64,000 bases of DNA from Ostreococcus lucimarinus (taxonomy: Eukaryota), in NCBI GenBank assembly GCA_000092065.1, contig CP000595.1; one strand, written 5' to 3'. Positions 1,798 to 49,091 of the stretch are shown here, one piece after another (position 1 is the stretch's first letter; every line of letters begins with the position of its first letter). The notes under the pieces were generated by a model. The model saw nothing but the letters and a program-made list of their open reading frames with translations. It was not told where the DNA came from and did not search any database. The position numbers were made by a program, and so were the translations under genes.

Positions 1798-1811
1798 GGG
1801 GTTTAGCCAAT
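1798..1811. promoter_or_regulatory. Telomere-like GGGGTTTAG (telo-box-like) next to a CCAAT box, in the divergent DPH3/RPL21 promoter region
   Basis: ggggtttagccaat at 1798-1811. Telo-box (AAACCCTAA/TTAGGGTTT) elements are typical of plant/algal ribosomal-protein promoters; 8/9 match here. Confidence 0.3.
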
Positions 1812-1984
1812 ATTTCGCGAGGAGGGCCACGAGACTCGTATTCGAACACGATTTAAGTCGATTCGAGACACGCATCACGAGACACAAAGCACGACGCACG
1901 CCCACCGTCCTCGAACGCGGTCGCTCGCGACGCGCGCGTCGTCGAGGCCGTCTCTTTCTGACGCGCGTCGTCGGTCGTGTAGTA

Positions 1985-2470
1985 GGTGCGTCCGTCGAGG
2001 CGACGCGAACGCGCGCGGAACGCATCGATGCCCGCGATCGCGCGTCGGCGCGCGGTCGAGCGCGACGGAGAACGACGGCGCGGACGTCGAGCGCGCGCAT
2101 CGATCGCGGGCGTGACCCTAGGCGGCGTCGCGCGCGATTCGCGGGAAGGCATCGCGCGAGGCGTCGACGAGGGGATCGAGCGATCGATGCGTCGGATGCA
2201 GACGAAATGTTCGCGTCGTGCGCGCGTCGTGTCGCGCGCGCGCGCGGGATGCGCGCGATGAGGCGTCGTGACGCGTGTTCGATCGCGTTCGGAAGCCCTA
2301 AGGCGGGAGGACCGGGCGCGACGCGCGGGCGCGCGGACGAACGCGAGCGTCGCGGGGACGCACGGCGCGAGCGAACGTGGAAAATATAATCACTGTTTGC
2401 GTCCGGCGCGCGAACCTTGGACCTCGAACGATGAAACTGACCAGAACGCCTCCTTCCTACGCGCAGATAG
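1985..2470 (+). other. Putative 5'-UTR intron of RPL21 (GTGCGT donor at 1985, ACTGAC branch at about 2436, polypyrimidine tract, acceptor CAGATAG directly before the ATG)
   Basis: tagtag|gtgcgtcc near 1985. gatgaaactgaccagaacgcctccttcctacgcgcagatag|ATG at 2430-2473 follows the same grammar as the coding introns in this window. No transcript evidence. Confidence 0.3.
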
Positions 2471-2977
2471 ATGGGTAACCAACGCGCCCGATCGCGCGGT
2501 TTGCGCCACGGCACCCGCAACTTGTTCTCCCGTGGTCACCGTGAGCATGGTACTTTGAACACGACGACGTACTTGCGTACGTTCCGTGTCGGTGATTACG
2601 TCGACATTAAGGTGAACTCGGCGCAACAAAAGGGTATGCCGTACTTGCAGTACCAAGGCAAGACGGGCATCGTGTGGAACGTGACGCCGCGAGCTGTGGG
2701 TGTGGAGATTAACAAGACCATCGGTGGTCGCATCGCTCGTAAGCGCATTCACGTGCGCGTTGAGCACGTGCAACACTCCCGATGCCGTGAGGATTTCATC
2801 GCCCGTCGTGCGGCGAACGACAAGGCGCACCACGAAGCGAAGTTGGCTGGAAAGAAGATCGTGACCAAGCGTCCGGTCACTGGCGCGCCGCGCACGGGGT
2901 TTGCGCTCGAGAACGTGAAGTCGGAACTCTTGACTCCGATCCCGTACGATATCTTGCGCGAAGGCATGAAGTACTAA
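2471..2977 (+). CDS. RPL21: 60S ribosomal protein L21e
   Basis: 168-aa ORF. MGNQRARSRGLRHGTRNLFSRGHREHG...VGDYVDIKVNSAQQKGMPYLQYQGKTGIVWNV...RIHVRVEHVQHSRCREDF is colinear with eukaryotic L21e. Confidence 0.9.
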   Translation: MGNQRARSRGLRHGTRNLFSRGHREHGTLNTTTYLRTFRVGDYVDIKVNSAQQKGMPYLQYQGKTGIVWNVTPRAVGVEINKTIGGRIARKRIHVRVEHVQHSRCREDFIARRAANDKAHHEAKLAGKKIVTKRPVTGAPRTGFALENVKSELLTPIPYDILREGMKY

Positions 2978-3004
2978 ATCTTAGCATACGAATCGGATTG
3001 GGTT

Positions 3005-3009
3005 TGTAA
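3005..3009 (+). promoter_or_regulatory. TGTAA poly(A)-signal-like motif 28 nt after the RPL21 stop
   Basis: TGTAA is the chlorophyte poly(A) signal. It recurs 20-90 nt downstream of many stops here: ARM-BTB at 11286, SSF1 at 17347, Patched at 43974, DUF726 at 46177 and 46186, SEL1L at 51405, and on the minus strand after S16, UMPK and ALG1. Confidence 0.35.
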
Positions 3010-3102
3010 ACTGTAGGTGAGACCTGCTTAAAAATTTCAAAGCTCCCGTCGCGTCGCTTGGCGTCCTCACTATCACGCTCTCGCGCGTCTCAACGCGTCA
3101 CC

Positions 3103-4314
3103 ATGTCGCTTCCTCCCGAATTGCTCGATTTCTGCGTGTGCAAAGGTCCGGGGGACACGATTTCTGAACAGCAGCTCGCCGACGCAGGGGTGAAGCGCGC
3201 CGTCATTCACGGAGACGCGGCGCTGGATACGAAGAATGCGCTCGCAGTCACGTCGTTGTGCAAAGTCAGGTTGAAATGGAAGTTCGACGATGAAGAGTGC
3301 TGGAAACAGGATGAATTCGTCGTGTACGATGGAACAGTACCGAGCGGTGTCGAACTGGCGATCATGAATCTTCACGAGGGCGAAAGTGTCGCCTTCAACG
3401 CGCGCGGCGAAGCGGCGCTGACTGATTTCGAGCCGCTGCCCAAGGCGGACATCTCACAGGTCTTTCGGTCAGGTCAAGCGGAGGTCTTGGATGTCAAACT
3501 CGAGCGTAAGGATAAGTTTGACATGAGCGCGAGCGACAAAATCGCATTCGGCGAAAAAATGAATGAGATTGGCAAGAAGTTGTTCGCGAACGGTCGACTG
3601 GCGCGCGCCGCTGAGGTTTGGAAACGAGCCGCCGAGGTTTTCGCAGTTTTAGAGCCCGAAGACGAGGACGTGAATCCGAACGGGATGAAAAATAACGAGG
3701 CATGTCACGAAGTAGCTCGAAAAGTCTACCTGAATATGGCTCTCGTCATGTACAAACTCGAAAACTTTACTGAATGTGAATTGTATTGCTGCGATGTATT
3801 GGACACTCGCGTCGATGAGCCGACGTACTCCCAAATCAAATCGAAGGCGCTGTTTCGACGAGGTTGCGCTCGACTGAAGCTCAGAAAAGTTTCGCTTGGA
3901 TCTAGAATCACCGCTGACACGGCTGAGGCGGATTTCTTCCTCGCCAGCGAGCTCGATTCTAGCATCGACGTCGCCGCGCATTTCGACGCTTGCACGGAAC
4001 TGCGAGAGCAACTCTTGGCGTCTGGAGTTGAAATCCCGTCCGACGACGTCGAAACGCCGAACGTCGAAGATGAGATGAATCATTACCCTACCGATATCGA
4101 ACACGCTTTGCGCCAAATCCGACGCGAAAATTTACACGACGGGTTGGCGTTCGAACATCCGCAGAAGCGCGCGGCGATTCTTGAAGAGCGCATGCGCGTC
4201 TACAGGCGACTCATGGATGAAACGCCTTGGAGCGCGCTTCGAGGAACGATGTTCGATGCGGACTCTGAAGAGCTGCAAAAAACCGCCACCACTGCGCGCG
4301 AGGTTGATACATGA
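3103..4314 (+). CDS. AIP/FKBP-like protein: degenerate FKBP-like N-domain plus C-terminal TPR repeats
   Basis: The track start at 3058 is TTG; the first ATG is at 3103 (MSLPPELLDF...). N-domain VYDGTVPSGVELAIMNLHEGESVAF is FKBP-like. The TPR region (KIAFGEKMNEIGKKLFANGRLARAAEVWKRA...YLNMALVMYKLENFTECELYCCDVLD...SKALFRRGCARLKL) is colinear with AIP/XAP2-type FKBP-TPR proteins. Lower GC than neighbours. Confidence 0.5.
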   Translation: MSLPPELLDFCVCKGPGDTISEQQLADAGVKRAVIHGDAALDTKNALAVTSLCKVRLKWKFDDEECWKQDEFVVYDGTVPSGVELAIMNLHEGESVAFNARGEAALTDFEPLPKADISQVFRSGQAEVLDVKLERKDKFDMSASDKIAFGEKMNEIGKKLFANGRLARAAEVWKRAAEVFAVLEPEDEDVNPNGMKNNEACHEVARKVYLNMALVMYKLENFTECELYCCDVLDTRVDEPTYSQIKSKALFRRGCARLKLRKVSLGSRITADTAEADFFLASELDSSIDVAAHFDACTELREQLLASGVEIPSDDVETPNVEDEMNHYPTDIEHALRQIRRENLHDGLAFEHPQKRAAILEERMRVYRRLMDETPWSALRGTMFDADSEELQKTATTAREVDT

Positions 4315-4339
4315 TTTATAACAAACAACAACGACATTA

Positions 4340-5107
4340 TTAACTGTTTCTCATTTTCGAAGCCGCGGCGTCGTCGACGATCCATCGCACGTCCCCGGTG
4401 ACCAAGGCGGCGGGCACGGAGCCATCTTGCGGCGCCTCTTCCAATATTCGAGCCGTCATTTCGGCTTTTCCCGCACCGGAGGCGACAAAAACTTTCGCTC
4501 GAGCGGCGTTCACCAAGGGCAAGGAGAACGTCACGCGTTCCGGCGGCGGTTTCGGCGAGTCGGCGATTGGTAAAATCCATCCCTCGGTCTCGCGCAACAG
4601 CGCGTGGTTTGGAAACAGCGAGCAGATGTGACCGTCGGGCCCGAATCCGAGCAAGAGCATGTCGAACACCGGCAATCCATCTTCGTTCAACTCGATCACG
4701 TCCGGCGTCAGCGCGCGTAAATCTCTCTCGTACGCCTCCGCGCACGGCTTCGCCGCGCCCTCGTTGCGTTCGCACAGCGTCTCGTCGACGGCGTACAACC
4801 GTTCTCGCTTCACGCTCACGTCCCCGAACAGCGCCCGCATCGCGCCTCCAAAATTCGATTCCTCGTCGTCCCACTTCACGCATCGCTCGTCCACCCAAAA
4901 CACTCGCCATTTATCCCACTCCACTCGCCGCGTCTCCTCCCGCAGCGCTCCGAGCGCCTTCGCGAGCGACCCCCCCGCGAGCGCCACCGCGAACGTCCCT
5001 CGCTTCTCGATCGCTTCTCTCGACGCCGTCTCCACCGCGTCCGCCAGCGCCTTCGCGCACGCGTCGTTATCGCGCACGCGTTCCATCGTCACCGAGGTCG
5101 CATCCAT
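4340..5107 (-). CDS. PGL: 6-phosphogluconolactonase
   Basis: VALAGGS...WVDERCV...LLLGFGPDGHICSLFPN...VFVASGAGKAEM are 6PGL/GlcN6P-isomerase family motifs. I chose the start at MDATSV (cat at 5105-5107). The Arg-rich upstream extension to 5344 could be a transit peptide or a GC artefact. Confidence 0.75.
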   Translation of the reverse strand: MDATSVTMERVRDNDACAKALADAVETASREAIEKRGTFAVALAGGSLAKALGALREETRRVEWDKWRVFWVDERCVKWDDEESNFGGAMRALFGDVSVKRERLYAVDETLCERNEGAAKPCAEAYERDLRALTPDVIELNEDGLPVFDMLLLGFGPDGHICSLFPNHALLRETEGWILPIADSPKPPPERVTFSLPLVNAARAKVFVASGAGKAEMTARILEEAPQDGSVPAALVTGDVRWIVDDAAASKMRNS

Positions 5108-5365
5108 CGCGTCCCGACGACGATGTCCCGCGCGACGACGATGTCCCGCGCGACGTCCCGGTCGTCGCTCGAGCGGTCGACGCCGCGCCGCGATCGTCGC
5201 GCGCGAGTCCGACGCCCGCGCGCGTCGCATCGGATCGATCGCGCGCGAACCACCGCGTCGCGCGGTGCGCGCGTCGTCGCTCGCACGGCGCGCATCCATC
5301 GGTCGATGCGATTCGATTCGACGCGACGCGCGCGCGCGCCGCACTCGACGACGCGACGACGGCGG

Positions 5366-5482
5366 ATGGCGACTCGACGCGCGCTCCGACCGCTCATGGA
5401 CCGCGTGCTGGTGGAGCGCATCGCGCCCGCGACGAAATCCGTGGGGGGGGTGCTGCTGCCGGAGAGCATGACGGGGAACACG
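5366..5482 (+). CDS. CPN10: Cpn10/GroES (HSP10) exon 1 of 3; the gene is join(5366..5482,5672..5741,5872..5996)
   Basis: MATRRALRPLMDRVLVERIAPATKSVGGVLLPES matches the Hsp10 N-terminus (M.KRLIPLLDRVLVEKI..GGILLPEK). The exon ends at ACG|gtgcgt. Confidence 0.7.
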
Positions 5483-5545
5483 GTGCGTCGACGACGAGGA
5501 CGAAGGCTCGCGAAGGATGGTCGGCGGCGACGCATGCGCGCACGC

Positions 5546-5575
5546 ATGAATGAATGAATGAATGAATGAATGAAT
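5546..5575. repeat. (ATGA)7 microsatellite inside Cpn10 intron 1
   Basis: atgaatgaatgaatgaatgaatgaatg. Confidence 0.8.
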
Positions 5576-5671
5576 GCGCGCGCGCGCGCGGACATCGACG
5601 ACGGTGGCGGACGAAAAAACAAAGGATGAAAGACTGACGCGGAGAATCGCGCGATGACGACGCGGACGCAG

Positions 5672-5741
5672 ATGAACGAGGCGAAAGTGATCGCCGCGGG
5701 ACCGGGACGAAGAACGATGAGCGGCGAGCTCGTGCCGTTGG
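5672..5741 (+). CDS. CPN10: Cpn10/GroES exon 2 (MNEAKVIAAGPGRRTMSGELVPL, phase-1 end)
   Basis: Acceptor gacgcag|ATGAAC after an ACTGAC branch at 5633. Matches Hsp10 GKVIAVGPGSRDKDGKLIPV. Donor TTGG|gtgcgag at 5742. Confidence 0.65.
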
Positions 5742-5871
5742 GTGCGAGACGCGACGCGCGCGCGCGATGAAACGCGAAACGGACGCGAAACGGGACGAAC
5801 AGACGACGGTGACGACGATGACGACGACGATGACTGACGAAGGAATCGATGACGGTTCGGACGAGGCGCAG

Positions 5872-6323: not shown

Positions 6324-9300
6324 ATGACGCGCGAGGAGCGAGGATCGTCGGCGAAGAAGAAGCGTCGAACGTCAACGTCGAGCGCGAAGGGCGAGAGCGG
6401 GGCGACGCTCGACGGACAACGCGAGGCGCGCGCGCTCGGGCCGTGGTCGACGACGGCGCGCGCGCGAGAGGAACGCGCGCGCGCGCGCGCGCACGCGAGC
6501 GCGAGCGCGAGTGGGAAACGAACGAGGGAGGAGGAGGAAAAGGGATCGTTTCGTGGATTATTCGTGGATTGTCGGACGGTGGACGATGACGCGGCGTTCG
6601 AGGCGTGGGAACGGGAGATGCGGGCGGTGGGCGAGGCGCTGCGCGAGTGCCCGTGTACCGAGAAAGACTGGGAGAGCGTGGGGGCGATGGAGAGTGCGCA
6701 AGGCGAAGGCGAAAGTGATGCGTGGGAAAGCGAGAAGATTTGGCTTCATAAGATGTCACGCATCGCGTTCTACGACTCGCAACCGCTGAGCGAGACGAAC
6801 GCGTGGCCGTTCGCTTCGAGAACGAAGAAGGACGCTACAAAGTCGACGGTGGCGCTCTTCAAGGCGAGCGTCTCGGCTTTCATCGCAGCGAAAAATACGC
6901 AGCGACTTGCGGAAGTGGACTGGAAATTACAAGAAAATAAATTAATCAACAGTTGGAAAGAATTGCTTATGACCCACACGCCTCGTCCGGGAGGCTTGGC
7001 AGACGTGTCGTGCGAGTTCAACGTGCACGTCACAGCGCTCGAGCAAGAGTTGGCGAAGAGACAAAATGAAGGTGATAAATCGGATGAATTTGGACGGCGC
7101 ATCAAACACATCAAAATCATGATACAGGTGTTGCAAAGCATAAAGGCGAGCTTCCAGTACTGCGCCACGGCGCTTTATGACACCGTGTTCGCGCCTCTGA
7201 GAGCTTTTTCTTCGGCGTCCATTACGAGTGAAAATTTCGAATCCGGCGTGGAGTTCGTCTCATGGGCCAGTCGCTCGGTGATGATCGCATCCGAACTGTG
7301 CCAAACGAAAGATTCATATCACGTTCGAATGACGCGATACACCAAACACGAGTTTTTGAATTGGTCACGAAAACTTTTGGACTTCTTCTACCACCACCTA
7401 TCGTCCGTGAGAGGTTCGCACATTGTCGAAACACTCGGGTCAGGTAGTGATTGTGCAGAATTAATGCAGCTCATCAAGTGCTTACCCACCATGCGTCTGA
7501 CGCTACCGTGCAAAGGGACTAGCCGGCGTGCCACCTATCTTTCGGACACAAGATTTTCGGACAAATTTCAACGAAAGCTGACACGATTCGCTCTCACGGT
7601 GATCGGTGCTGCAAAGTCTCAACTTTCGCAGCACACACAAACGCACAAATTAGGCAAATTTCTGTTCCCGGAGTGGATCGAGCATCTCGTCGATACCATC
7701 GAGCACAATAAGAGTTACACAGTGAAAGAGCTAGCCCGGGAGATTCTTCTCTCGTTGGATATTGCCAACTTGCTCGCAACTCGTGTAGAAGTGCTCAGCG
7801 TAAAATCTCTCATAAAATTGTCTGACGATGAATTGTCTGTCGACGACGAATTGTCTGTCGACTACGATGACGACGTAAAAGAGCTCAAAGAGTTGTTATC
7901 ATGGCTTCGCTCAATATTAAGCGTGCATCCATCCAAGTTGAGGAACGTGGCTGACTTGGCGAAGGACTTGATTTCCGTCTTTGGATTCTGTCGCCTCCGA
8001 CGCGAAACACATGGTGACAAAGTTCAAAAAAGTGGGCATGATCATAGTTTAGAGTCGGACATATGCAGTATCTTTGCGTGCCTCGCCGTCAGTCGCGATC
8101 ACGACCTTGACGATGAAGAGAAGCTCAAATCTTGTCCGTGTGAGATGGTCAAGTTGAGATCTGAAGACGCGAGAAAAATGATTCAGCAATTGGTGATGCA
8201 TGAAGATCATCTCGACGATGTCGAGGCGGTGATTTTGAATATGCTAACGCTGGATCGAACGAGCATGTCAGCGAGCGATACAACCATCCCTTCCGCTTTG
8301 GCCGCGCTGACTATGTTGGTCCGAAAAAATTGTGTCCTCAGGGAGCGATTTTTCAAATCGGGCGACACCACCAACACGTTGTTGGAGATTCTTGAGTGCA
8401 AGAATGCGAACGTAGCGCGCATCACCAGCGCTTGCATTCTGTCATTCGAAGAGCATCATCGGCTCGTGACTAGTTTGTACAAACCGAACGTGATCACCGA
8501 TAAAAAAGGCGAGCAAGTGACTGAAATATCTGGTTGGGACGTTGACACGATTCGTCAGTCGCTCAGAGCCATCTCTGCGCTCGTCAAAGACTCTACCGTG
8601 TCTTCAATCGGTTTCGATAGCGCCATTTTGGAAGTCATCTGCACTGATAGGCGAATGCTTGTTCTTACGAACAAGATCAAGGCGACGATAGAAAAGAAGA
8701 TTAACAAGAGTATGGATTATCCCAACTCCCGGCTCTGCTTCCCAGAAGCTCTGCTTGAAGAATGGGTGTTCGATCTACTCTGCATGAGAAGCGATCTTCT
8801 CACTCAAATGGCCACTGCGGTCACAAACGGCGGCGGTGACCCGTGGAAAAACTTCAAGCCTAAACATGAAGAGTTCGCGAGTTTCATCAGTCGTGAGTTT
8901 GAAGTCGCGAACACCGACGCGACGATACCACCGGAGGCGCACGCAGAATGGTTTCAAGAGGTCGTGACATTGGTGACAACTGTGCAAGAAAAACTCAAGA
9001 AAGACGAGGAAATCTCCGACGTCTGCAGTATTTTGATGGATGGAGACACCGATGGTCCATCTTCCCGTGTTGGTATCGTAGTCCCCATCTTAACTCTGTT
9101 ACACAAATGTCGCATCTTGCAGGAGCACAATTTGATTTCCGAGCTAGAAGTCGAGGGCATCAGCGATATTGAAAAAGAAGCGTGTTACGTCATCGGCTTA
9201 TTAGCGAGTAAGCAAGGAATTCAAGATCGTATCGCAAGCTCTTTCCTTATCGAAGGCAAGAACGGAATCGAGCAATTAATTCCGCTCTTGCAACGATACC

Positions 9301-11258
9301 AACCCAGTGCGAAAAACGCCGCGAATGCCAGTGTTGCGAGACGCGCATCGGATGCAATCACAAACTTAGCACACGAGAACAGTCGCATTAAAACGATGGT
9401 TCGAAATGCGAATGGCATCCCTCCTCTGGTCAATCTATTGGAATCGCAAGAGAAAAAAGTCCAGAAGGCTGCCGCTAGTGCGCTCAGAACTCTGGCTTTC
9501 AAAAATGGTGAAAATAAAAACCAAATTGTCGAGTGTGGCGCACTTCCGAAGCTCATTTTCATGGCTCGTTCAGAGGACGTAATGATTCACAAAGAAGCAA
9601 TTGGTGTGATTGGAAACTTGGTTCACTCTTCGCCGCACATCAAACGACGCGCCCTCGACGAAGGAGCGCTGCAACCCGTGATTGAATTGCTCAAGTCTCA
9701 GTGTTCCGAAACGCAGCGTGAGGCGGCGTTATTGCTTGGTCAGTTTGCCGCGCGCCTTGAGCCTGCAGCGCCGGGTGATCCAGACTATCGGACAAAAATA
9801 GTCCAGCGTGGAGCTGTAGAGCCGTTGATTAAAATGCTCGGCGGTCAATTTGTCTATCGTGAACCTGGTCTTCGAGAGATGGCAGCCTTTGCCCTCGGTC
9901 GACTTGCGCAACACGGGGATAATCAAGTCGGAATCTGCCATTCGGATGGATTACGGCCGTTGTTGACGTTACTCGAATCAGAGATAGAAGATATCGCCGA
10001 AGGACTTCGTCATCATAGCGCTTCCGGGAAGTCTGATCACGAGATCGATCTAGACGCCAAGCGCTTTGCTGAAAATTTGCAGCACAACGCTGCGTTTGCA
10101 CTCTATGGCCTAGCCGCGCATCAAGACAACGTGCCAAAGATGCTCAAAGAGAACGCCTTCATGCGGTTGAAATTTTCTCATCTCATCGCCGAACAGAGCA
10201 AACAATGTGTGAATAAAACGTTAAAGCGGCTCGAGGACGGAGTCAGCCGCAGAGATGTCTTGACTTATCTCGGTTTCGTCATAAGCACTGGCAAGCCAGT
10301 CGAACGTCAAAGAGTAACGCTCGCTCTGGCTTGGCTAATCAGGAAAGAAAACCAAGACTATCTGAAAGACATGCGCGCGGTTTTCATAGACAAAGGTGGT
10401 CTTGACGTCCTTTCTGGCGCTTTACTTGATACGCCGGCGGAGCCCATAGACTTTTCTGGGCATACGAGTGGTCTCGCCGGTGGCAAACGCATTGTAAACG
10501 TGATAATGGAGGCTCTGAGAGAGATTAAGGACAAGCTGGTGTCACAGGTTGTGGTGGAATCTCACATGATGCCGCCACCCTCGACGCCAACGGCCGAGGA
10601 GCATATGCCAGCGAACTTCAATGACCCCGAGCTTTCAGACGTGACGTTTATTGCTCGGGATGATGAAGGTGAAAAGCGAGAGTTCAATGCGCATAGAATC
10701 GCTTTTACGCACGCCTCTGATGCGTTCTTATCAACGCTCGAAGCGGGTAAAGCTGATGTCGACGTTTATCCCGCCACATACAAGGTTGACCTCGAAGACG
10801 TTTGTTGGAACGTGCTTGAGGCGATGATGGATTTCATTTACACGGGCACTGTCGGACCGATGTCCAGCCTCCGAGACCAGGCGTTTCTCCAGCATAGATG
10901 CGAGGACGTACTCTCCGCCACGACACGCTTCGACCTTCCCGGGCTCAAGTATTTGACCGAAAAACTTTTCATCGATAACGTGAAAATGGATACTTTCACA
11001 TTCGCGAGAACGTGTGCATTGTATCGCGCCGCCGTGGAGCACGACGCCGTGGCGATCCAGGACCACGTGCTGGGCTATGTTCTCGACAACTACGACAAAC
11101 CTTGGATTGACGACGATGTCACGATGAATTGTCTCACTTCATACAAAGCGCGCGTGAAAGACATCGTCGAATGCTTCGGGAAAGGCTTGGTGAAATACCT
11201 TGACAAACTGTTGCGCCGAGAGCGCGTCGCCGTCGTCGCGGACGCGCAAGACGAATGA
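6324..11258 (+). CDS. Large armadillo-repeat plus C-terminal BTB/POZ protein (ARIA/ABAP1-like architecture), 1644 aa; start uncertain
   Basis: ARM-like repeats at 9200-9900 (NGIPPLVNLLESQEKKVQKAAASALRTLAFKNGENKNQIVECGALPKLIFMARSEDVMIHKEAIGVIGNLV...). BTB domain near the C-terminus (DVTFIARDDEGEKREFNAHRIAFTHASDAFLSTLEAG...YKVDLEDVCWNVLEAMMDFIYTG). The body from about 6900 on is about 45-50% GC against about 70% in the flanks. The GC-rich low-complexity N-terminal 190 aa may be UTR. Confidence 0.7.
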   Translation: MTREERGSSAKKKRRTSTSSAKGESGATLDGQREARALGPWSTTARAREERARARAHASASASGKRTREEEEKGSFRGLFVDCRTVDDDAAFEAWEREMRAVGEALRECPCTEKDWESVGAMESAQGEGESDAWESEKIWLHKMSRIAFYDSQPLSETNAWPFASRTKKDATKSTVALFKASVSAFIAAKNTQRLAEVDWKLQENKLINSWKELLMTHTPRPGGLADVSCEFNVHVTALEQELAKRQNEGDKSDEFGRRIKHIKIMIQVLQSIKASFQYCATALYDTVFAPLRAFSSASITSENFESGVEFVSWASRSVMIASELCQTKDSYHVRMTRYTKHEFLNWSRKLLDFFYHHLSSVRGSHIVETLGSGSDCAELMQLIKCLPTMRLTLPCKGTSRRATYLSDTRFSDKFQRKLTRFALTVIGAAKSQLSQHTQTHKLGKFLFPEWIEHLVDTIEHNKSYTVKELAREILLSLDIANLLATRVEVLSVKSLIKLSDDELSVDDELSVDYDDDVKELKELLSWLRSILSVHPSKLRNVADLAKDLISVFGFCRLRRETHGDKVQKSGHDHSLESDICSIFACLAVSRDHDLDDEEKLKSCPCEMVKLRSEDARKMIQQLVMHEDHLDDVEAVILNMLTLDRTSMSASDTTIPSALAALTMLVRKNCVLRERFFKSGDTTNTLLEILECKNANVARITSACILSFEEHHRLVTSLYKPNVITDKKGEQVTEISGWDVDTIRQSLRAISALVKDSTVSSIGFDSAILEVICTDRRMLVLTNKIKATIEKKINKSMDYPNSRLCFPEALLEEWVFDLLCMRSDLLTQMATAVTNGGGDPWKNFKPKHEEFASFISREFEVANTDATIPPEAHAEWFQEVVTLVTTVQEKLKKDEEISDVCSILMDGDTDGPSSRVGIVVPILTLLHKCRILQEHNLISELEVEGISDIEKEACYVIGLLASKQGIQDRIASSFLIEGKNGIEQLIPLLQRYQPSAKNAANASVARRASDAITNLAHENSRIKTMVRNANGIPPLVNLLESQEKKVQKAAASALRTLAFKNGENKNQIVECGALPKLIFMARSEDVMIHKEAIGVIGNLVHSSPHIKRRALDEGALQPVIELLKSQCSETQREAALLLGQFAARLEPAAPGDPDYRTKIVQRGAVEPLIKMLGGQFVYREPGLREMAAFALGRLAQHGDNQVGICHSDGLRPLLTLLESEIEDIAEGLRHHSASGKSDHEIDLDAKRFAENLQHNAAFALYGLAAHQDNVPKMLKENAFMRLKFSHLIAEQSKQCVNKTLKRLEDGVSRRDVLTYLGFVISTGKPVERQRVTLALAWLIRKENQDYLKDMRAVFIDKGGLDVLSGALLDTPAEPIDFSGHTSGLAGGKRIVNVIMEALREIKDKLVSQVVVESHMMPPPSTPTAEEHMPANFNDPELSDVTFIARDDEGEKREFNAHRIAFTHASDAFLSTLEAGKADVDVYPATYKVDLEDVCWNVLEAMMDFIYTGTVGPMSSLRDQAFLQHRCEDVLSATTRFDLPGLKYLTEKLFIDNVKMDTFTFARTCALYRAAVEHDAVAIQDHVLGYVLDNYDKPWIDDDVTMNCLTSYKARVKDIVECFGKGLVKYLDKLLRRERVAVVADAQDE

Positions 11259-11645: not shown

Positions 11646-12390
11646 CTATATCGCGTCGTAATCGCGCAAACTCGTCAGTCTCCCGTTCACACTCCCGTTC
11701 ACTCCTCGTTCTCGACTCTCCTTCGCGTCTTTCGCGTTCGAAATCCCCATCCTCGCGTTCGTCTCCCCGAGGTCAAGCCCTGAGGAAATAGGGTTCCTCC
11801 CTCCCTCGCATCTCGCGCGACGTACCGCAACTCTGTTCTCCACGCGCAGCGCCGCGCGAGCGCCCGTGATGGTTCTCTTTTCAACCTATCGTCGCGCGCA
11901 TCCACCGTCCGTCGTCAGTCGTCGCGTTCGCGTCCTCGTCGTCCGCCGTCGCCGCGACCCCACCCATCGTCGACGGCGTCGCGCGATTCGGTCGTCCCGC
12001 GTCCCGCCGTCGCGCTTCGCGCGCCGCCGCGTCGTCGTCGTCGTCTCGACGATTCAATTTTACGCGACGCTCGCGCACCTTGCTCTGCACGCGCGCGCCG
12101 CCGACGAGGGCGGCGCTGAACGTGAACGTGCTCGCGCTCATGACGGACGCGGTGTGCCGCGACGACGCGCGCGGGGGCGCTCGACGCGCGACGGGCTGTT
12201 GGTGGCGTGCGATCGCATCGCGCCCGATGCGCGTCCGTCATGGGATCTCTCGCGCGCGGAATACGCGATCCCGACGCCTGCGCTCAAAAAATGCGAAAAC
12301 GAGACGTCACACGGACCGCGAACCCTCGCGCTCGAGGTCGCGCGATCGCGCTCGACGCGGCCTCTTTCGTCGACGCGCGCGCGACTCACG

Positions 12391-12573: not shown

Positions 12574-12872
12574 GTGCGTGCGCGCGCTCGATGCGATGGG
12601 GAAGAAATGTTTGCGTCGCCCGGGCGCGGGCGGCGGCGATGGGGGTCGACGATGCGCGCGCGACGCGGCGATCGCGCGGTGGTCGAGCGAGGCTAGGGCT
12701 TTTGAGCGCGCGCGCGGGCGACGAGGCGGGGCGCAGGACGTCGAGTGGGGGCGACGAGGCGCGTTTGGGATGGTTAAGGCGCGAAGCGGAGAGATCGCGC
12801 GCGTGGTGCGCGTGATGCGTCGTGCGAACGCGTGTACTGACGAATCGACGCTCGTTTGTTTCCCGCGAATAG

Positions 12873-14078: not shown

Positions 14079-15665
14079 TCACGGCGAAGGGCGCGCTTTT
14101 TTCGCGCGACCAGGCGAGAACATGCTCGAGAGGAAATTCTTCCTTCGCGGCGGCGTCGTTCGGGCGAAGACGTCGGTTTTCGCCGCGTCTGCGTCGATGG
14201 GTTTCAACGCGACGTCGTCGTCATCGATTAAATCGATCGTCAGCACATCACGACTGTCGACGGCGTTTTCGACGGCATTTGAGATGGGGACGGCGTCGAC
14301 GTTGACGGCGGCCAACGCGTCGTCGTCCAATTCGTCATCTTCAAACGTCGGTGCTTCAAAGACTGGTTTTTTTTTGGGTGAAACAACTTTCGTCAAGAAG
14401 TTCATCATGAACGAACGCTGCGCCGAGGTACCTTGAGCTGCCTTGCCTCGCCTGTCGCCAATTTTCAGCGTCGTCTTCTTCGCCGCTCGCCGTGGCGATT
14501 CAATCTTAAATTTCTGGCGGGTGATAGGGTTTAATTCACCTTCCGCTATGCGCCTCGCTTCATCGTCATCGAATTTCGGCCCGAGAAAACTCAAATCGTT
14601 CGCGAACTCGCAATGCTCGGGAACCGGCGTGAGGTGTCGAAGCGCGCCGGCGTGGGGGTCCCACACCAACGCGTGCTTGAAAATCATTCGTGCCTTTCTC
14701 CACTCCACTTCGTACCCTTCCGCGATCAAATCCTTAATTTTTTCATTCGCCCTCAATTCGGCGAACACCGCGTCGACACATCGATGTTTGTTCAAAATAT
14801 TGTACATTTTTTTGATACCCAAGCCGCGAATGTTGTCCAAGAAATCGCACCCCGACAACACGCACAAGCTTAGAAATAATTCGTAGTCCCACCCAGTGAA
14901 ATCCAGCGGCGGCGGACCTTTGCTTTTCGGTTTATTCGCTCGCCCGATCGCGTTGTCGTCGACGTTTTCATCGCTCGGCGTTTCCGTAGTCGTCGTCGTC
15001 GTCGCGCGCGCGGCGCCTTCAAACAAACTCGCCAACCTCAGCTCCTTCGCATCGCCGGATTTTTCCAACTTAAACACTACGCGCGGACACCCGTACGCCA
15101 CGAGATCGGAATCTTCCGTGAACACTAAATCTACCCCCCCCCGTTCCTTCGCCGTGAGAGCGAGCGACGCAATCGTCGCGTCAGCCTCGTACGGCGCGAC
15201 GACGAACTCGAATTTCTCCCTCTTCAGCGCCACGATCAGCTCCCTCGCCATCTCCGGCGTCACATCGATCGCCCCCGAAAACGCCCGAAACGCTCCCTCC
15301 TTATCGCCCGCCGCGCGCGCCCGCTCTCCTCGCTCCAACAGCGCCGCCCGTCGCTCGCGTCTCGCGCGTTCCTCGCCTCGCTTCGCCGGCGCTCTGTCGC
15401 CGTCGAACACGATCACCGGTTCGATCCCGTGATGCCTCAGCATGTTCGCTCGGTGCACGGCGTATTTCACGTACGGCGCCGTCGCGCCCGGTCGTCGCTC
15501 CCACGCGCGATCGCCTCCGGGCGCGAGCGCGTCGACGCACCCGAACGCGCCCTTGTGCAGCCAGCTGTAGGCGTCCACCGCGCATCGCGTGCCGGGCGCG
15601 TATTCACCGACGTGCACGCGCTCGCAGTACGGCTCGAGGACGGCGGGCAGGCCCTTGATGCCCAT
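14079..15665 (-). CDS. EXO1: Exonuclease 1 (XPG/Rad2 family 5'-3' exonuclease)
   Basis: MGIKGLPAVLEPYCERVHVGEYAPGTRCAVDAYSWLHKGAFGC is the XPG-N domain. VVAPYEADATIASLA...VFTEDSDLVAYGC is XPG-I. GWDYELFLSLCVLSGCDFLDNIRGLGIKK is the H3TH region. Colinear with EXO1. ATG at 15663-15665; the upstream 45 aa of the track ORF are discarded. Confidence 0.8.
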   Translation of the reverse strand: MGIKGLPAVLEPYCERVHVGEYAPGTRCAVDAYSWLHKGAFGCVDALAPGGDRAWERRPGATAPYVKYAVHRANMLRHHGIEPVIVFDGDRAPAKRGEERARRERRAALLERGERARAAGDKEGAFRAFSGAIDVTPEMARELIVALKREKFEFVVAPYEADATIASLALTAKERGGVDLVFTEDSDLVAYGCPRVVFKLEKSGDAKELRLASLFEGAARATTTTTTETPSDENVDDNAIGRANKPKSKGPPPLDFTGWDYELFLSLCVLSGCDFLDNIRGLGIKKMYNILNKHRCVDAVFAELRANEKIKDLIAEGYEVEWRKARMIFKHALVWDPHAGALRHLTPVPEHCEFANDLSFLGPKFDDDEARRIAEGELNPITRQKFKIESPRRAAKKTTLKIGDRRGKAAQGTSAQRSFMMNFLTKVVSPKKKPVFEAPTFEDDELDDDALAAVNVDAVPISNAVENAVDSRDVLTIDLIDDDDVALKPIDADAAKTDVFARTTPPRRKNFLSSMFSPGRAKKARPSP

Positions 15666-16127: not shown

Positions 16128-16236
16128 GTGCGGGAAATCGGGGCGAGAGGAGAGGACGCGATCGGGGGAGATGGGGACGCGAGCGCGGCGAGCGAGGAGG
16201 AACGCGCGGACTGACGAGCGACGACGCGCGACGCAG

Positions 16237-17313
16237 GTGATGGAACCGCACACGGCGCGGAATTTGAAGGAATCGAAGAGCAATAAGTTGAAAGATTTCG
16301 TGCAAGTATCCGGACCGCTGGGGATTTCGCACTTTTTGATGCTCAGTTCGTCGGACGCGTCCAAGTATTTCAAGATTTGTCGAACGCCGAGAGGGCCGAC
16401 GTTGACGTTTAAGATTCATTCGTTTTCCCTGTCGAACGAGGTCGCAGCGACGCAAAAGAACCCGAGGAATCCAGCGAAGGCGTTTTTGTCGCCTCCGCTC
16501 GTGATTTTAAATAACTTTGGCGATGAAGCGCATCAAAAGTTGGCGACGATTACGTTTCAGAATATGTTTCCGCCTATCAACGTGCGCAAGGTGAAGCTTT
16601 CAACGTGTCAGCGCGCCGTGCTCGTGGATTACGACGCCAAGACGAAAAGATTTCAGTTTCGTCACTACAGCATCAACGCCGCGCCCGTGGGGGCGAATAA
16701 AAAATTGAAGAAGCTCTTACAGTCGAGAAACGCGCCCGATTTGGGGGACACGCAAGACGTGAGCGAATTTTTCGACAAGAGAGTCGGCGACGCGAGCGAT
16801 AGCGAAGGCTCCGACGACGAAAGTCGACGAGTGCACTTGACGCAGGACTTCAATCGCGTCGCTCACGCCGACAGCACGTCCAAGATTATCCTCAACGAAA
16901 TCGGTCCTCGCATGGAACTCGAGCTCGTCAAGGTCGAGGAAGGCATGTGCGACGGCCGCGTGTTATACCACGCCTACGTCAAGAAAACCGCGGAAGAGGT
17001 CAAAACTCTCGAGCAGAAAAAGGTCGAGCGCGAAAAGTTACGAAAACGCCGACGAGTAGAGCAAGAAGCGAACGTCAAGCGCAAGGCGCGCGAGAAGGAA
17101 ATCAAAGCGGACGCCGAGCGCGCCCGTCAAGGCAAATCCAAAAAGAAATCCTCCGCCGTGGACGAGTTCGGGAACGTCCGCGACGTCGAGGGTGAGGCAG
17201 AAGACGACGCCAAGTGGGCCGCCGCGTTCGAACGCGAAGAAAAAGAATGGCGAGAGGGCGACGTGTACGACGAGCGTTCCGGAAAGACAAAGCGTAAACG
17301 CCACGGCGACTAG
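16237..17313 (+). CDS. PPAN: SSF1/PPAN Brix-domain protein, exon 2
   Basis: Acceptor gacgcag|GTGATGGAA after a GACTGAC at 16209. VMEPHTARNLKESKSNKLKDFVQVSGPLGISHFLMLS...TPRGPTLTFKIHSFSL continues the Brix domain in frame with exon 1. K/E/R-rich C-terminal tail. Confidence 0.75.
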   Translation: MMEPHTARNLKESKSNKLKDFVQVSGPLGISHFLMLSSSDASKYFKICRTPRGPTLTFKIHSFSLSNEVAATQKNPRNPAKAFLSPPLVILNNFGDEAHQKLATITFQNMFPPINVRKVKLSTCQRAVLVDYDAKTKRFQFRHYSINAAPVGANKKLKKLLQSRNAPDLGDTQDVSEFFDKRVGDASDSEGSDDESRRVHLTQDFNRVAHADSTSKIILNEIGPRMELELVKVEEGMCDGRVLYHAYVKKTAEEVKTLEQKKVEREKLRKRRRVEQEANVKRKAREKEIKADAERARQGKSKKKSSAVDEFGNVRDVEGEAEDDAKWAAAFEREEKEWREGDVYDERSGKTKRKRHGD

Positions 17314-17456: not shown

Positions 17457-17465
17457 TTAGGGTTT
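17457..17465. promoter_or_regulatory. Perfect telo-box TTAGGGTTT about 500 bp upstream of ribosomal protein P1
   Basis: gcTTAGGGTTTgag at 17457-17465, between the SSF1 3' end and the RPLP1 start. Confidence 0.4.
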
Positions 17466-17968
17466 GAGCTGGAGTTTTCCTACGAGAGCGCCCGCGCGCG
17501 GTGCGATCGACCTCTTTCGTCGGCTCGATACGCTAAGGCGCGAACACACGCGCGGCTACGAAACAAGCACACACAAGTAAACAAAACGTACGTTCACGCG
17601 CCCGCACGTGCGTCGCGCTGCACGCGTCGCACGCGCGACGCCGAGGCGAAGATCGCGCGCGCGTTGAAAACCCCAAAACGCATCGACGAACGATCTTCGT
17701 CGCGCGCTGGCTCAACGTTCGCGCCCTTCGACGGCGTCGAGCGATGACGATCGTGACGATATATTTCGTTCGCGTTCGTTCGCGCGCGGTGTCGGCGATC
17801 GCGCGTCGCACGGCATAGAAAGCGAGGACGCCGCGACGTCGCTATGGGTGTTCGAACCGCGACGTCGAGGGGGTCATCGAGGTCGACGCGCGAAGGCGGC
17901 GCGCGAGCGATGGGCTTGAGAGAACGAAAGACTGACGAAAGAATGTGTTTCGCTGGAACAGAAATAAA

Positions 17969-18283
17969 ATGTCTGGTGATCTCGCGTGCACGTACGCGGC
18001 TCTCATCCTCCACGATGACGGTCAAGAGGTGACGGCTGACAAGATCAGCGCTGTCGTCTCTGCGAGCGGGTTGGAGCTCGAACCGTACTGGTCCGGTTTG
18101 TTCGCCAAGTTCCTCGAGCAAAAGTCCGTGGGTGACCTCATCTCCAACGTCGGCGCTGGTGGCGGCGGCGGTGGCGGCGGCGGCGCGGCTGCGGGCGGCG
18201 ACGCCGGCGGCGACGCGGCTGCTGCTGCTCCGGAAGAAGAAGAAGAAGAAGAAGCCGAAATGGACTTCGACTTGTTCGATTAA
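17969..18283 (+). CDS. RPLP1: 60S acidic ribosomal protein P1
   Basis: MSGDLACTYAALILHDDGQEVTADKISAVVSASGLELEPYWSGLFAKFL...Gly/Ala hinge...EEEEEEAEMDFDLFD*. Canonical P1, including the C-terminal (M/F)DFDLFD. Confidence 0.85.
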   Translation: MSGDLACTYAALILHDDGQEVTADKISAVVSASGLELEPYWSGLFAKFLEQKSVGDLISNVGAGGGGGGGGGAAAGGDAGGDAAAAAPEEEEEEEAEMDFDLFD

Positions 18284-30274: not shown

Positions 30275-30282
30275 GTCGTCCA

Positions 30283-44059: not shown

Positions 44060-44105
44060 CGTCACTTCGCGCCCCACGGCGTCGGCTTCGTCGCCGGCGC
44101 GCGCG

Positions 44106-46169: not shown

Positions 46170-46297
46170 ATATTCCTGTAATTCCTGTAATAACGATGCA
46201 CTGACCCTCGCCGCCGCGCGTTTCGCTTTGCCTCGAGTCGGCGTCCGCGGCGAGCCCACACTTCGTGCGGCGTCCCCACACTTCGTGCCGTCGCGCC

Positions 46298-47485
46298 ATG
46301 CCGCGAATCGTCGGGCTCGGCGACCCCGTGACTGATGTGGTGTATCACGCATCTCGCGACGCGATCGTCGCGCTGTTGCGCGACGCGCACGACGCACACG
46401 ACGCGGATGAAGTTGAAATCGGCGGCTGCGTCCCAGTGTCCGCGCGCGAGCTGCGCGCGCTCGTGCGCGCGATTCCCGAGCGCGACGCCGTCGTGAGCCC
46501 CGGCGGAAGCGCGGCGAACGTTCTCAAAGGCATCGCACAGTGCGCGGCCGACGATGCGAGCTCGACGACGTCGTGCGTGTTCGTAGGGACCGTGGACGGG
46601 CGGGACGACGTCGGCGCGGCGTACGGGGACGCGCTGCGACGCGCGAGAGTTGAATCGGCGCTCATGGCGTACGAAGGCGATGATGCGAGCGATGCAGAGG
46701 GAGAAAATGGAATAATTGGAAGCGCGCGATGCGTGTGCTTGGTGGACGATCGAGGGCAGAGAACGATGCGGACGTATTTGGGGGCGTCGGCGAAGACGCG
46801 AGCGGACGATTTGCCGAGCGAGGCGTTGCGCTCGGCGGATGTGTTGCACGCGGAGGGGTACGCGCTGTATAAACCGGATGTTTTAGCGCGCGCGTGCGCG
46901 CTGGCCAAGGAAAACGGCGCGCTCGTGAGCTTAGATTTGGCGTCGTTTGAGGTTGTGAGGCACTGTCGAGACGCGCTGCGCGAGACGCTCGAGTCGGGCG
47001 TCGTCGACGTGATATTTTGCAACGAAGACGAGGCGCGCGAACTCGTGCGTGGAATCGACGACGACGGCTGCGCGCGCGCGCAGGAGTCGCATCCGCAGTT
47101 GAACGGGCGCGACGTCGAGCGACCGAGCGAGGAAACCGAGTTGGCGGCTTTGGCGTATTTATTGCGTTACGTCAAACTGGCCGTGTGTTCTCGCGGCAAG
47201 CGCGGGTGCGTCGCGATGAACGCTGAAGGCGAGCGAAGCGAATCTCGCGCCGAAGGCGTGGAAGCGATCGACACCACGGGCGCGGGAGACACGTTCACGA
47301 GCGGGTTCTTGCACGCCTATCTCGCCGGTGGATCGTTGCGACAGTGCGGCGACGCCGGTTGCGCCGCGGGGGCAGAGGTCGTTCAAGTTCGCGGCGCGGA
47401 GATGGACGACGATCGCTGGCGTCGCGTGCGCGAAAAGATTGCGATAATTTTAGGCAAGGAGCGCTCACCGAGCGCGACGATGTAG
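46298..47485 (+). CDS. PfkB-family carbohydrate/nucleoside kinase (ribokinase/adenosine-kinase-like)
   Basis: SPGGSAANVLKGIAQ is the N-terminal motif. DTTGAGDTFTSGFLHAYLAG is PfkB signature 2. The track start is GTG; the first ATG is at 46298 (MPRIVGLGDP). Confidence 0.75.
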   Translation: MPRIVGLGDPVTDVVYHASRDAIVALLRDAHDAHDADEVEIGGCVPVSARELRALVRAIPERDAVVSPGGSAANVLKGIAQCAADDASSTTSCVFVGTVDGRDDVGAAYGDALRRARVESALMAYEGDDASDAEGENGIIGSARCVCLVDDRGQRTMRTYLGASAKTRADDLPSEALRSADVLHAEGYALYKPDVLARACALAKENGALVSLDLASFEVVRHCRDALRETLESGVVDVIFCNEDEARELVRGIDDDGCARAQESHPQLNGRDVERPSEETELAALAYLLRYVKLAVCSRGKRGCVAMNAEGERSESRAEGVEAIDTTGAGDTFTSGFLHAYLAGGSLRQCGDAGCAAGAEVVQVRGAEMDDDRWRRVREKIAIILGKERSPSATM

Positions 47486-47571
47486 CGTTAGCGATAAAAA
47501 TCTGGTTGTCGTGTTGTTATTGATTCATCATCACGAAATTCGGCCCCAAAGTACTTCACGCGTTCTCTCGT

Positions 47572-48879
47572 TCAGATCGCGAAGGTGCCGACGGGTTCTC
47601 GTTGTCGATATTTGCGCGCTCGAAGGTGCCTCTGGTAGCACGCCGTGCACACGGTGTGTTCGCCAGACTTGCGCCACTGCGATGATTGCTTCGTGCGGTC
47701 GCACGACGGACAGTGCCGCGGCGGCGCGGAGCTCGGCTTTTGCGCCTTTTTCCCGCCGTTTTTGTGCGGCGGCATGCGCTTGCGAGGCGCGCCGGCGGCG
47801 TTCAAATCCGGGTGATTCGCGCGGTCGCTGAAACACTGGTGACACGTCCACACGGGTTCGCCCTCGGGCCCGGTTTCTTTCGATCGGTACCATCGCACGT
47901 CGGGCTCGGTGCGCTTCGCCTTTCGGCAATCCGCGCACGTTCGTTCGTCGCGCAGTTTCCGCATGCGATTCTTCGTTCGGTGATAGCACTTGTGGCAGCA
48001 CTTCCCCCCCGCCGCCGCGTCCTCCGACGGGTCGCTCACCAACAGCATCCCGTTCGCGGAATTCCCGCACTTTTCGCACCGCGTCAGCGCGCCCTCGTTC
48101 TTTCTCCGCTCCTTCCGCGCGCGCTCGTAGCACTTCGCGCACCGCGTCCCGAGCGCGCCGCCCTCGCGCCCCGTCGCCGCGGTCCCCCGCGCGGGATCGT
48201 CCGCCGCCACGCGCACCCACTCCCCCCTGCACTTCGTCTCCCCGCACTCCACGCACGCCCGCACGACGCCGTCGACGACGTGCTCCGTCGTCGCGTTCCT
48301 CTTTCTCCGCTCTCTCTGAAAGCACGCCTTGCACCGAAACCGCGTCGCGTCGCCCCCCCCGTCATCCATCCTTCGCCATCTCGACGTCTTCTCCGCCCCG
48401 CACGTCTCGCACGCCCGCCCATCCGTCGCCGGTGGTGCGCGCTTCTCCGTCCTCTGCCCCGGCGTCCCTCGCGCGCCCTCCGCGGTCGCCGCCGGTCGTT
48501 TCCGCGGCGTCCCGGTCGCGCGTCCCGGTCGCGCGTCGAGCGACCCGAGTCTCGCCGTCGTCTCGCGCGTCGTCGCCTGCACGCGCGCGCGATCGTCGCT
48601 CGGCGCGCGCACCGAAGCGACGAGCGAGCGCTCGCGCGTCGCGCGGCGCGACATCGTTGTCGACGGATCGCGCGCCGGGGCGTCGAGAGTCGCGCGCGTC
48701 CGTGTGTGGATCGCGCAACGGTCGAATGCGATCGATGGATGCGATCGATGCGATCGATCGATCGATCGACGCGAGGCGACGGCGCGATGCGGATGATTCG
48801 GACGCGCGAATCCCATCGTTCGCGCGCGCGCGCGTTCGCGCGTTCGCGCGTTCGCGCATTCGCGCGCATGCACTCGCAT
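47572..48879 (-). CDS. Protein with five tandem GATA-type (CX2CX17-20CX2C) zinc fingers; putative transcription factor
   Basis: CETCGAEKTSRWRR...CKAC; CVECGETKCRGEW...CAKC; CEKCGNSANG...CHKC; CADCRKAKRTEPDVRWYR...CHQC; CPSCDRTKQSSQWRKSGEHTVCTAC. The last is the most GATA-canonical (T..WR...G..C.AC). ATG at 48877-48879. Confidence 0.6.
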   Translation of the reverse strand: MRVHARECANARTRERARARTMGFARPNHPHRAVASRRSIDRSHRSHPSIAFDRCAIHTRTRATLDAPARDPSTTMSRRATRERSLVASVRAPSDDRARVQATTRETTARLGSLDARPGRATGTPRKRPAATAEGARGTPGQRTEKRAPPATDGRACETCGAEKTSRWRRMDDGGGDATRFRCKACFQRERRKRNATTEHVVDGVVRACVECGETKCRGEWVRVAADDPARGTAATGREGGALGTRCAKCYERARKERRKNEGALTRCEKCGNSANGMLLVSDPSEDAAAGGKCCHKCYHRTKNRMRKLRDERTCADCRKAKRTEPDVRWYRSKETGPEGEPVWTCHQCFSDRANHPDLNAAGAPRKRMPPHKNGGKKAQKPSSAPPRHCPSCDRTKQSSQWRKSGEHTVCTACYQRHLRARKYRQREPVGTFAI

Positions 48880-48928
48880 TCATCCGAGGGGGACGACGAC
48901 GGACGACTGTGTCGTTGTATCATCGGGT

Positions 48929-49080
48929 ACGAAGCCCTTGGTATATGACCCAGTGCGTCGTATACGGTCACGGTTTTCGCTATGTATCGAAAATCAGGGT
49001 TACGAAGCCCTCGGTATGTGACCCAGTGCGTCGTATACGGGCACGAATATCGCTGTGTATACGGACACGAAAATCAGGGT
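48929..49080. repeat. Imperfect tandem duplication, 2 x about 75 bp, in the divergent GATA-ZnF/SEL1L promoter
   Basis: tacgaagccctTggtatAtgacccagtgcgtcgtatacggTcacg...aaaatcagggt repeated as tacgaagccctCggtatGtgacccagtgcgtcgtatacggGcacg...aaaatcagggt. Confidence 0.75.
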
Positions 49081-49091
49081 TTAGGGTTTAG
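49077..49091. promoter_or_regulatory. Interstitial telomere-like repeat GGGTTTAGGGTTTAG (two TTTAGGG units, contains telo-box TTAGGGTTT)
   Basis: Immediately follows the tandem duplication. About 90 bp upstream of the SEL1L ATG and about 200 bp from the GATA-ZnF ATG. Confidence 0.5.

Follow-up and report, generated by a model that had tools for sequence, protein, structure and literature searches.

In a 64-kb stretch of Ostreococcus lucimarinus DNA (contig CP000595.1; the whole stretch analysed is hereafter called the window), a telomere-like element with the core CCCTA is non-randomly associated with ribosomal-protein (RP) genes, being enriched more than 10-fold in their non-coding DNA. Genes were assigned from Pfam scans and sequence reading. 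The core (CCCTA/TAGGG) is rare, with 16 copies, seven of them in non-coding DNA, and six of these seven belong to RP genes, where they occupy 5' regions or first introns: two in RPL21, one between bS16 and RPS21, two in RPS21 intron 1 and one in RPLP1; the seventh belongs to an intergenic telomeric repeat outside the RP genes (site 3). The RP-associated non-coding DNA (2.47 kb) carries 6 copies against 0.47 expected (Poisson P = 1e-5), and the remaining non-coding DNA (11.6 kb) carries 1 copy against 2.8 expected, both expectations coming from per-segment dinucleotide shuffles. In land plants (Arabidopsis, rice, moss) the related telo-box AAACCCTAA is found in the 5' regions of RP, eEF1A and other genes of the translation apparatus.

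The CCCTA core in ribosomal-protein non-coding DNA

Both RPL21 copies precede the coding sequence (2471-2977, plus strand) and lie in a putative intron of the 5' untranslated region (5'UTR): the core at 2116 (C-strand GTGACCCTAGGC) is part of the motif TGACCCTAGG (2113-2122, plus strand), and the core at 2296 (C-strand GAAGCCCTAAGG; 2292-2303, plus strand) is one mismatch from the telo-box. The copy at 11789 (C-strand GGAACCCTATTT) belongs to the 5' region of bS16, an organellar-type, nuclear-encoded RP gene (minus strand, ATG 11630; PF00886 on the called product); it is found about 160 bp 5' of the ATG within the island AAGCCCTGAGGAAATAGGGTT (11775-11795), and reads AACCCTA on the gene strand. 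The neighbouring RPS21 (plus strand, ATG 12391, intron from 12575) contributes two intronic copies: one at 12694 (C-strand AAAGCCCTAGCC), antisense to the gene in a motif on the minus strand at 12693-12702 (plus CTAGGGCTTT, minus AAAGCCCTAG), and one at 12870 (C-strand TTCGCCCTATTC), which is the splice acceptor TAG/GG and is trivial. The last copy, at 17458 (C-strand CAAACCCTAAGC), lies in the promoter of RPLP1 (coding sequence 17969-18283, plus strand), whose protein matches an NCBI Ostreococcus entry at 100% identity and its O. tauri counterpart at 80%. The rough consensus of the motif is R-R-V-CCCTA-R (examples are AAACCCTAA, AAGCCCTAA/G, GAACCCTA and TGACCCTAG), and its orientation is sense in RPL21 and bS16 and antisense in RPS21 and RPLP1.

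When all 5-mers were ranked by their frequency in RP compared with other non-coding DNA, CCCTA was second of 164 (P = 1.8e-4) and was present in all four RP segments; the sole 5-mer above it was the compositional CGCGC. Allowing one mismatch to AAACCCTAA, six sites were found in the window, five of them non-coding (three in RP 5' regions, two at site 3). The SEL1 loci used as controls (seven contigs, about five identity groups) contain at most about 0.3 CCCTA per kb of sequence outside open reading frames (ORFs); the figure for RP non-coding DNA is 2.4 per kb. These densities bear on the idea that many gene classes use the motif as a general element of promoters or chromatin (nucleosome exclusion, insulator, Polycomb-recruiting telobox), with no RP specificity. 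Such an element would account for site 3, which lies in a non-RP bidirectional promoter, and for two occurrences in divergent clades: a perfect TAAACCCTAG at 5774-5782 of contigs L013/L014, in the divergent promoter of amino-acid-kinase and mitochondrial-carrier genes, and AAACCCTAAA in an unannotated intergenic region of another clade. Plant teloboxes also occur outside RP genes, where they recruit Polycomb repressive complex 2 via TRB proteins (PMC5405695). Nevertheless, the control loci and the single non-RP non-coding segment with CCCTA in the window, fewer than expected, make a general element quite improbable. The first-pass annotation had proposed that telo-boxes mark promoters, those of RP genes included; the RP association is borne out, whereas the extension to promoters in general is not, a single one among about 30 non-RP intergenic regions of the window carrying a telo-box.

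The placement of the motifs was referred to putative transcription starts. A TCT/TOP (terminal oligopyrimidine)-like pyrimidine motif of the CCTCTTTCG type is found 5' of all three cytosolic RP genes and is kept across clades: TCTCTTTCT at 1952-1960 (plus strand; reading GTCTCTTTCTGACG at 1952), the putative RPL21 start; CCTCTTTCGTCG at 12362-12373 (plus strand), ending 17 bp 5' of the RPS21 ATG; and the same 12-mer at 17512-17523 (plus strand), the putative RPLP1 start. The RPS21 counterpart in clade L017 is GCCTCTTTCGACG, in the same place; the RPLP1 motif is kept in L015 and L021, and the aligned position reads CCTCACTCG in O. tauri and CCTCATTCT in L013. The heptamer CTCTTTC has three copies in RP non-coding DNA and none in other non-coding DNA, and the TCT/TOP-like motif is likely to be an RP-specific initiator. 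This companion feature serves mainly as a positional reference; it resembles the animal TCT/TOP initiator in its sequence type, in preceding the three cytosolic RP genes and in being kept across clades, and differs in that the Ostreococcus start sites are putative.

In RPL21 and RPLP1 the TOP-like motif lies about 450-520 bp 5' of the ATG and is followed by a donor of the GTGCGT/GTAAAC type, and a CTGAC branch-like site, a pyrimidine tract and a CAG stand directly before the ATG (in RPL21, donor GTGCGT near 1986 and acceptor CAG adjoining ATG 2471; in RPLP1, intron end just before ATG 17969). From these signals we infer 5'UTR introns in both genes, together with their start sites. Measured from the TOP-like motifs, the CCCTA motifs lie at about -54 in RPLP1, about +160 and +340 in RPL21 and about +330 in RPS21.

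Since most of the conserved copies fall inside the putative first introns, and regulatory RNA elements and small nucleolar RNAs (snoRNAs) are common in the introns of RP genes, they might act as RNA-level signals in the pre-mRNAs: splicing enhancers, branch sites, sites for autoregulatory proteins or unannotated intronic snoRNAs. This appears very improbable. The presence of both sense and antisense copies with respect to the host genes points to an element that works at the level of DNA and not of RNA; the intronic motifs are 170-350 nt from the 3' splice sites, with the CTGAC branch-like sites nearer; and the RPLP1 copy lies 5' of the putative start. No Rfam family reached the gathering score anywhere in the window, and scanning with relaxed settings, for which the 5' region and intron of RPL21 were the sole RP sequence used, gave no more than two weak matches, both below threshold. 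Taken together, the orientations, the upstream copy, the distance from the 3' splice sites and the Rfam result favour a DNA-level site.

Conservation of the motifs among relatives

Orthologous loci were examined in metagenome contigs (numbered with the prefix L), whose clade identities were inferred and in which orthologous sites are non-independent observations. Two divergent clades, L017 (RPL21 90% identical) and L023, keep the gene order DPH3-RPL21 ... bS16-RPS21, and little of their non-coding DNA can be aligned with the window, one of them having a 2.5-kb spacer in the RPL21 5' region. They were therefore compared by shared k-mers, for which mononucleotide shuffles are a poor null owing to CG repeats. 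Four RP motifs persist as isolated islands in this otherwise diverged DNA. The RPL21 motif at 2113 reads GTGACCCTAGGCGG in L017 and GTGACCCTAAGG in L023, and that at 2292 reads GGGAAGCCCTAG and GAAGCCCTAAGA, respectively; the words of the RPL21 intron that persist in both clades are GTGACCCTAGG and GAAGCCCTA. The bS16 island reads AAGCCCTCATGAAATAGGGTT in L017 and AACCCTA in L023. In RPS21 intron 1 the 10-mer CTAGGGCTTT is common to the window, L017 and L023, and, besides the start of exon 2 (GACTCCGC), it is the sole word other than CG repeats shared by this intron in all three.

The RPLP1 locus behaves differently between clades. Its perfect telo-box (17457-17465, minus strand; plus strand TTAGGGTTT, minus strand AAACCCTAA) ends 46 bp 5' of the TOP-like motif, with 54-55 bp from start to start and 54 bp when counted from the start of TAGGGTTT. 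The close relatives L015 and L016 have the telo-box at the same distance from the TOP-like motif, with a diverged immediate 5' flank. A second island, GTTGAAAACCCCAAAACG (17663-17680, plus strand), lies in the RPLP1 5'UTR intron and contains AAACCCCAA, one mismatch from the telo-box; the four Ostreococcus clades that were aligned, O. tauri included, all have its core TGAAAACCCCA unchanged, while the surrounding intron diverges and the flanks vary (O. tauri reads GGTGAAAACCCCAGTTCG, the three other clades GTTGAAAACCCCAAAACG). This island is absent from clade L021, which has AGACCCTAAAA in the RPLP1 coding intron. The gene 5' of the RPLP1 promoter in the window encodes a Brix-domain protein (16171-17313, plus strand), and in L013/L014 an extra gene of 686 amino acids (1178-3238) is inserted between Brix and RPLP1.

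Among more distant relatives, the Mamiellales-like contig L096 (GC 0.63, RPLP1 64% identical) has a sole ACCCTA in 12.3 kb, and this is AAAACCCTAAAAA, a perfect telo-box AAACCCTAA located 76 bp 5' of the ATG, within the 5'UTR intron of RPLP1. The RPL21 gene of Klebsormidium has AACCCTAA in intron 1.

The telomere-like sites and the site 3 minisatellite

The first-pass annotation had grouped three telomere-like sites: site 1, GGGGTTTAG at 1798-1806 (plus strand) followed by CCAAT at 1807-1811; site 2, the RPLP1 telo-box described above; and site 3, GGGTTTAGGGTTTAG at 49077-49091 (plus strand), which is (GGGTTTA)2G, a two-unit interstitial telomeric repeat. All three were confirmed at these positions, as was the gene context of the first two: site 1 lies in the divergent intergenic region between DPH3 (CSL zinc finger; 1471-1695, minus strand) and RPL21, and RPLP1 is downstream of 17457. 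Site 3 had been placed between a GATA zinc-finger gene and SEL1L. On one side there is indeed a Sel1-repeat gene (from 49184, plus strand); on the other, the gene (minus strand, end near 48657-48879) encodes a multi-finger GATA-like protein with five C-x2-C...C-x2-C fingers, which matches Pfam GATA below threshold only (E = 0.005, 16.8 bits against a cut-off of 26.8).

Compared with 100 dinucleotide-preserving shuffles of the window, TTAGGGTTT was found twice (0.06 expected; no shuffle with two) and AAACCCTA three times (0.12 expected; no shuffle with three), both counts being above the shuffles; GGGTTTAG was found three times (0.47 expected), with two of the three overlapping at site 3. The bare 7-mer TTTAGGG was not enriched in the window (1 against 1.26 expected). 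A scan for the telomere array in all phases gave two more sites: TAGGGTT at 11789-11795, between bS16 and RPS21, and TAGGGTTTA at 14525-14533, within the coding sequence of an XPG-like nuclease (14079-15665, minus strand). The latter is kept in L015/L016 as conserved coding sequence and therefore needs no regulatory explanation. A G-strand bias was considered and rejected: all four telomere-like matches of at least 8 nt have the G-strand on the plus strand, which with n = 4 is not significant.

The three sites do not form one set. Sequence identical to the telo-box (about 1.3 telomere units, AAACCCTAA/TTAGGGTTT) is found at 17457-17465 and at 49081-49089 only, and of the three sites only that of RPLP1 belongs to the RP-associated set: site 3 adjoins genes unrelated to translation, and site 1 is an 8-nt match to the telomere array lacking the CCCTA core (C-strand CTAAACCCC). 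Site 1 may be a weak variant (AAACCCC) of the RP-associated element, and the 17663-17680 island of RPLP1 shares AAACCCCA with it. Site 1 is invariant in all ten metagenome contigs with an identical RPL21; these contigs are near-identical throughout and are therefore uninformative on conservation, except for an indel 5' of the site. Neither L017 nor L023 has site 1 at this position; L017 has CTAACCCTAGG on the other strand, about 60 bp from that position.

The indel lies directly 5' of site 1 (around 9300 in L005 and L007, around 1795 in the window), where these two contigs have an extra CGAAAATCAGTCGCGCGCGCG. The same 10-mer CGAAAATCAG directly adjoins the telomeric repeat in each of the two site 3 modules, which hints at a composite element of GAAAATCAG and GGTTTAG. 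The 10-mer of site 1, GGGGTTTAGC, was also seen in the same orientation about 190 bp 5' of the ATG of RPL21 in Klebsormidium nitens (L100, around 3810); this match, from one gene and noticed post hoc, may be a coincidence.

Site 3 ends 92 bp 5' of the SEL1 ATG. A metagenome scan with the Sel1 protein recovered orthologous loci at 98-100%, 92%, 81-82%, 78%, 76% and 73% identity, and (GGGTTTA)2 was present only in the 98-99% group, being absent from L031 (92%) and from all more distant clades. Immediately 5' of the repeat, at 48925-49076 (plus strand), two modules in tandem, both about 73-80 bp long and with CGAAAATCAGGGTT as their last letters, form part of a population-variable minisatellite in the GATA-like/SEL1 divergent promoter. 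The 63-nt units found at 48925 and 48998 share 87% identity, and the two copies of CGAAAATCAGGGTT are 80 bp apart. The DNA 5' of the repeat differs among haplotypes of the same species, with one module in L024, two in the window and two larger ones ending in TTAGGGTTTAGAAGATGC in L025; in L026 it is replaced by unrelated AT-rich DNA, and homology to the window starts exactly at GGGTTTAGGGTTTAG. The telomeric repeat is present in all four haplotypes despite this replacement of adjacent DNA. Sub-repeats of about 24 bp (GTATACGGNCACGAAWATC...) within the minisatellite include the words GAATATC and AAAATCA, which resemble evening-element/CCA1-type sites. The site 3 module had no match in the viral contig collection, and there is therefore no evidence for a prasinovirus origin.

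Site 3 is thus a young, species-specific interstitial telomeric repeat that forms the fixed, promoter-proximal edge of a minisatellite. Either selection has kept this first promoter-proximal element in place, or the repeat is a recombination/repair junction. The earlier description of a two-unit repeat fused to a duplicated promoter module holds as regards the duplication; the module is a young, unstable minisatellite. Being species-specific and at the edge of a hypervariable repeat, site 3 is uninformative on deep conservation; it is likewise uninformative on ribosomal genes, and it may be bound by the same factor as the RP motifs.

These features suit an explanation in which all the motifs are neutral interstitial telomeric sequences (ITSs), short remnants of slippage, recombination or telomerase-assisted break repair that play no part in regulation, and their proximity to RP genes is a coincidence or a side effect of the greater amount of non-coding DNA in these genes. 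Site 3 has the characters of an ITS (at least two perfect units, an internal and lineage-specific position, and a place at a rearrangement junction) and lies exactly at the boundary of a structural variant in the minisatellite; in addition, the conservation of sites 1 and 2 stops at very close relatives, and the plain TTTAGGG 7-mer is not enriched. However, even site 3 is unlike a neutral ITS in being very short, fixed about 92 bp from a start codon and retained in four haplotypes, and the single-unit RP-associated motifs are outside the ITS category. Neutral origin also leaves unexplained the opposite deviations of RP and other non-coding DNA (6 against 0.47, and 1 against 2.8), the four motif islands kept in three clades within unalignable introns and the perfect telo-box that a distant relative has in its RPLP1 intron. 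We regard it as unlikely.

Elsewhere in the window, an Armadillo/BTB gene (6324-11258) has a GC content of 0.48-0.51 (window positions 7000-11000) against about 0.61 for the rest, and a P-type cation ATPase appears as two ORFs (55952-57229 and 57531-59438), implying an intron of about 300 bp.

A candidate telobox-Myb element and its evolutionary reading

Judging from the sequence comparisons, it is reasonably probable that the motif is a telo-box-like, RP-associated cis-element with a CCCTA core, probably bound by a telobox-Myb protein, that co-regulates RP genes. The CCCTA-core elements near the putative start, most of which fall in the 5'UTR or first intron, in either orientation, would act as DNA-level sites for telobox-type Myb proteins, whose binding would help to co-regulate RP genes as the land-plant telo-box does. 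Candidate factors exist: O. lucimarinus has two TRFL proteins, XP_001421395.1 and XP_001416857.1, and TRFL and Smh/TRB-type telobox-Myb proteins form separate lineages (PMC3400083, PMC4700174). The telomere repeat of this species is of the TTTAGGG type (PMC2794166).

Several observations weigh against this reading. The CCCTA core was chosen and refined after the data had been seen, from four RP genes in one 64-kb window, and the RP non-coding segments are unusual compared with the other non-coding DNA, having long introns and being richer in CG; the copy at 12870 is a splice acceptor, and without it the count falls to 5 against 0.47 expected. The commonest conserved form, AAGCCCTA, differs from the telomere repeat. 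No site II (TGGGCY) or TEF partner motif was found near the RP motifs: non-coding TGGGCY occurs twice in the window, one copy being some 450 bp away from the telo-box in the intron of RPLP1, and none is near RPL21 or RPS21. Conservation is patchy and RPLP1 differs between clades, its telo-box being absent in O. tauri (L011), L013 and L021; Chloropicon RPLP1 has no CCCTA-type motif, and neither has a low-GC, Bathycoccus-like RPL21 contig in 6.2 kb.

The telo-box is among the best-known plant promoter elements of ribosome and translation genes. The candidate Ostreococcus element is like it in being, at some of its sites, identical or near-identical to the species' own TTTAGGG unit, in its apparent placement around the putative start, 5'UTR or first intron, in its presence in cytosolic RP genes and one nuclear-encoded organellar RP gene, and in the occurrence of telobox-Myb proteins in the genome. 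It differs in that the commonest conserved form is AAGCCCTA(A/G) and not AAACCCTAA, in that the best-conserved RP motifs (AAGCCCTAA/G, TGACCCTAG and GAACCCTAT) share only the CCCTA core, in lacking the site II/TEF partner, and in its patchy conservation and an association drawn from four genes. In land plants the telo-box lies from about -60 to +140/180 of the start and is over-represented in the RP genes of cytosolic and mitochondrial ribosomes (PMC2576244, PMC3022908, PMC3212954). Chlamydomonas RP genes were described as lacking telo-boxes (data not shown in that study), and RP regulation by telo-boxes as specific to land plants (PMC3212954), so that the evolutionary point is worth making. 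We found no paper on the telo-box in Ostreococcus promoters.

Outside the plants, the RP regulons of fungal Tbf1, a TTAGGG-binding Myb protein, and of S. cerevisiae Rap1 are a parallel: a telomere-repeat-binding factor is reused at RP promoters through telomere-like sites in the fungi and, as proposed here, would be so in Ostreococcus. The comparison draws on what Hogues et al. reportedly described in 2008 (cited in PMC3022908). The lineages and the telomere units are different, any homology between the regulatory links is hypothetical, and the factor in Ostreococcus is a candidate.

The annotation had further suggested that the regulatory link predates land plants. Of the sites on which it relied, site 3 is uninformative here, site 1 lacks the core and is not kept in place in the divergent clades, and the RPLP1 site is kept only in close relatives; the enrichment in RP non-coding DNA, the conserved islands and the RPLP1 telo-box of the distant relative do suggest, from only four genes, a link between the telo-box and RP genes older than land plants. 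Tentatively, and with rather less confidence than we would need to favour it, telomere-repeat-Myb control of RP genes through CCCTA sites could have existed in the common ancestor of chlorophytes and streptophytes and been lost or rewired in some lineages, such as Chlamydomonas; it might even share ancestry with the Tbf1-RP system.

If true, a conserved, telomere-like element associated with RP genes in a prasinophyte would move the telo-box link back by about a billion years and would contradict the view that it is specific to land plants. The fixed edge of the site 3 minisatellite offers a natural case of a repeat kept by selection versus a recombination junction. With its very compact genome, few transcription factors and amenability to transformation, Ostreococcus would be a simple system for studying the repeated reuse, in plants and fungi, of telomere-binding proteins at ribosomal genes.

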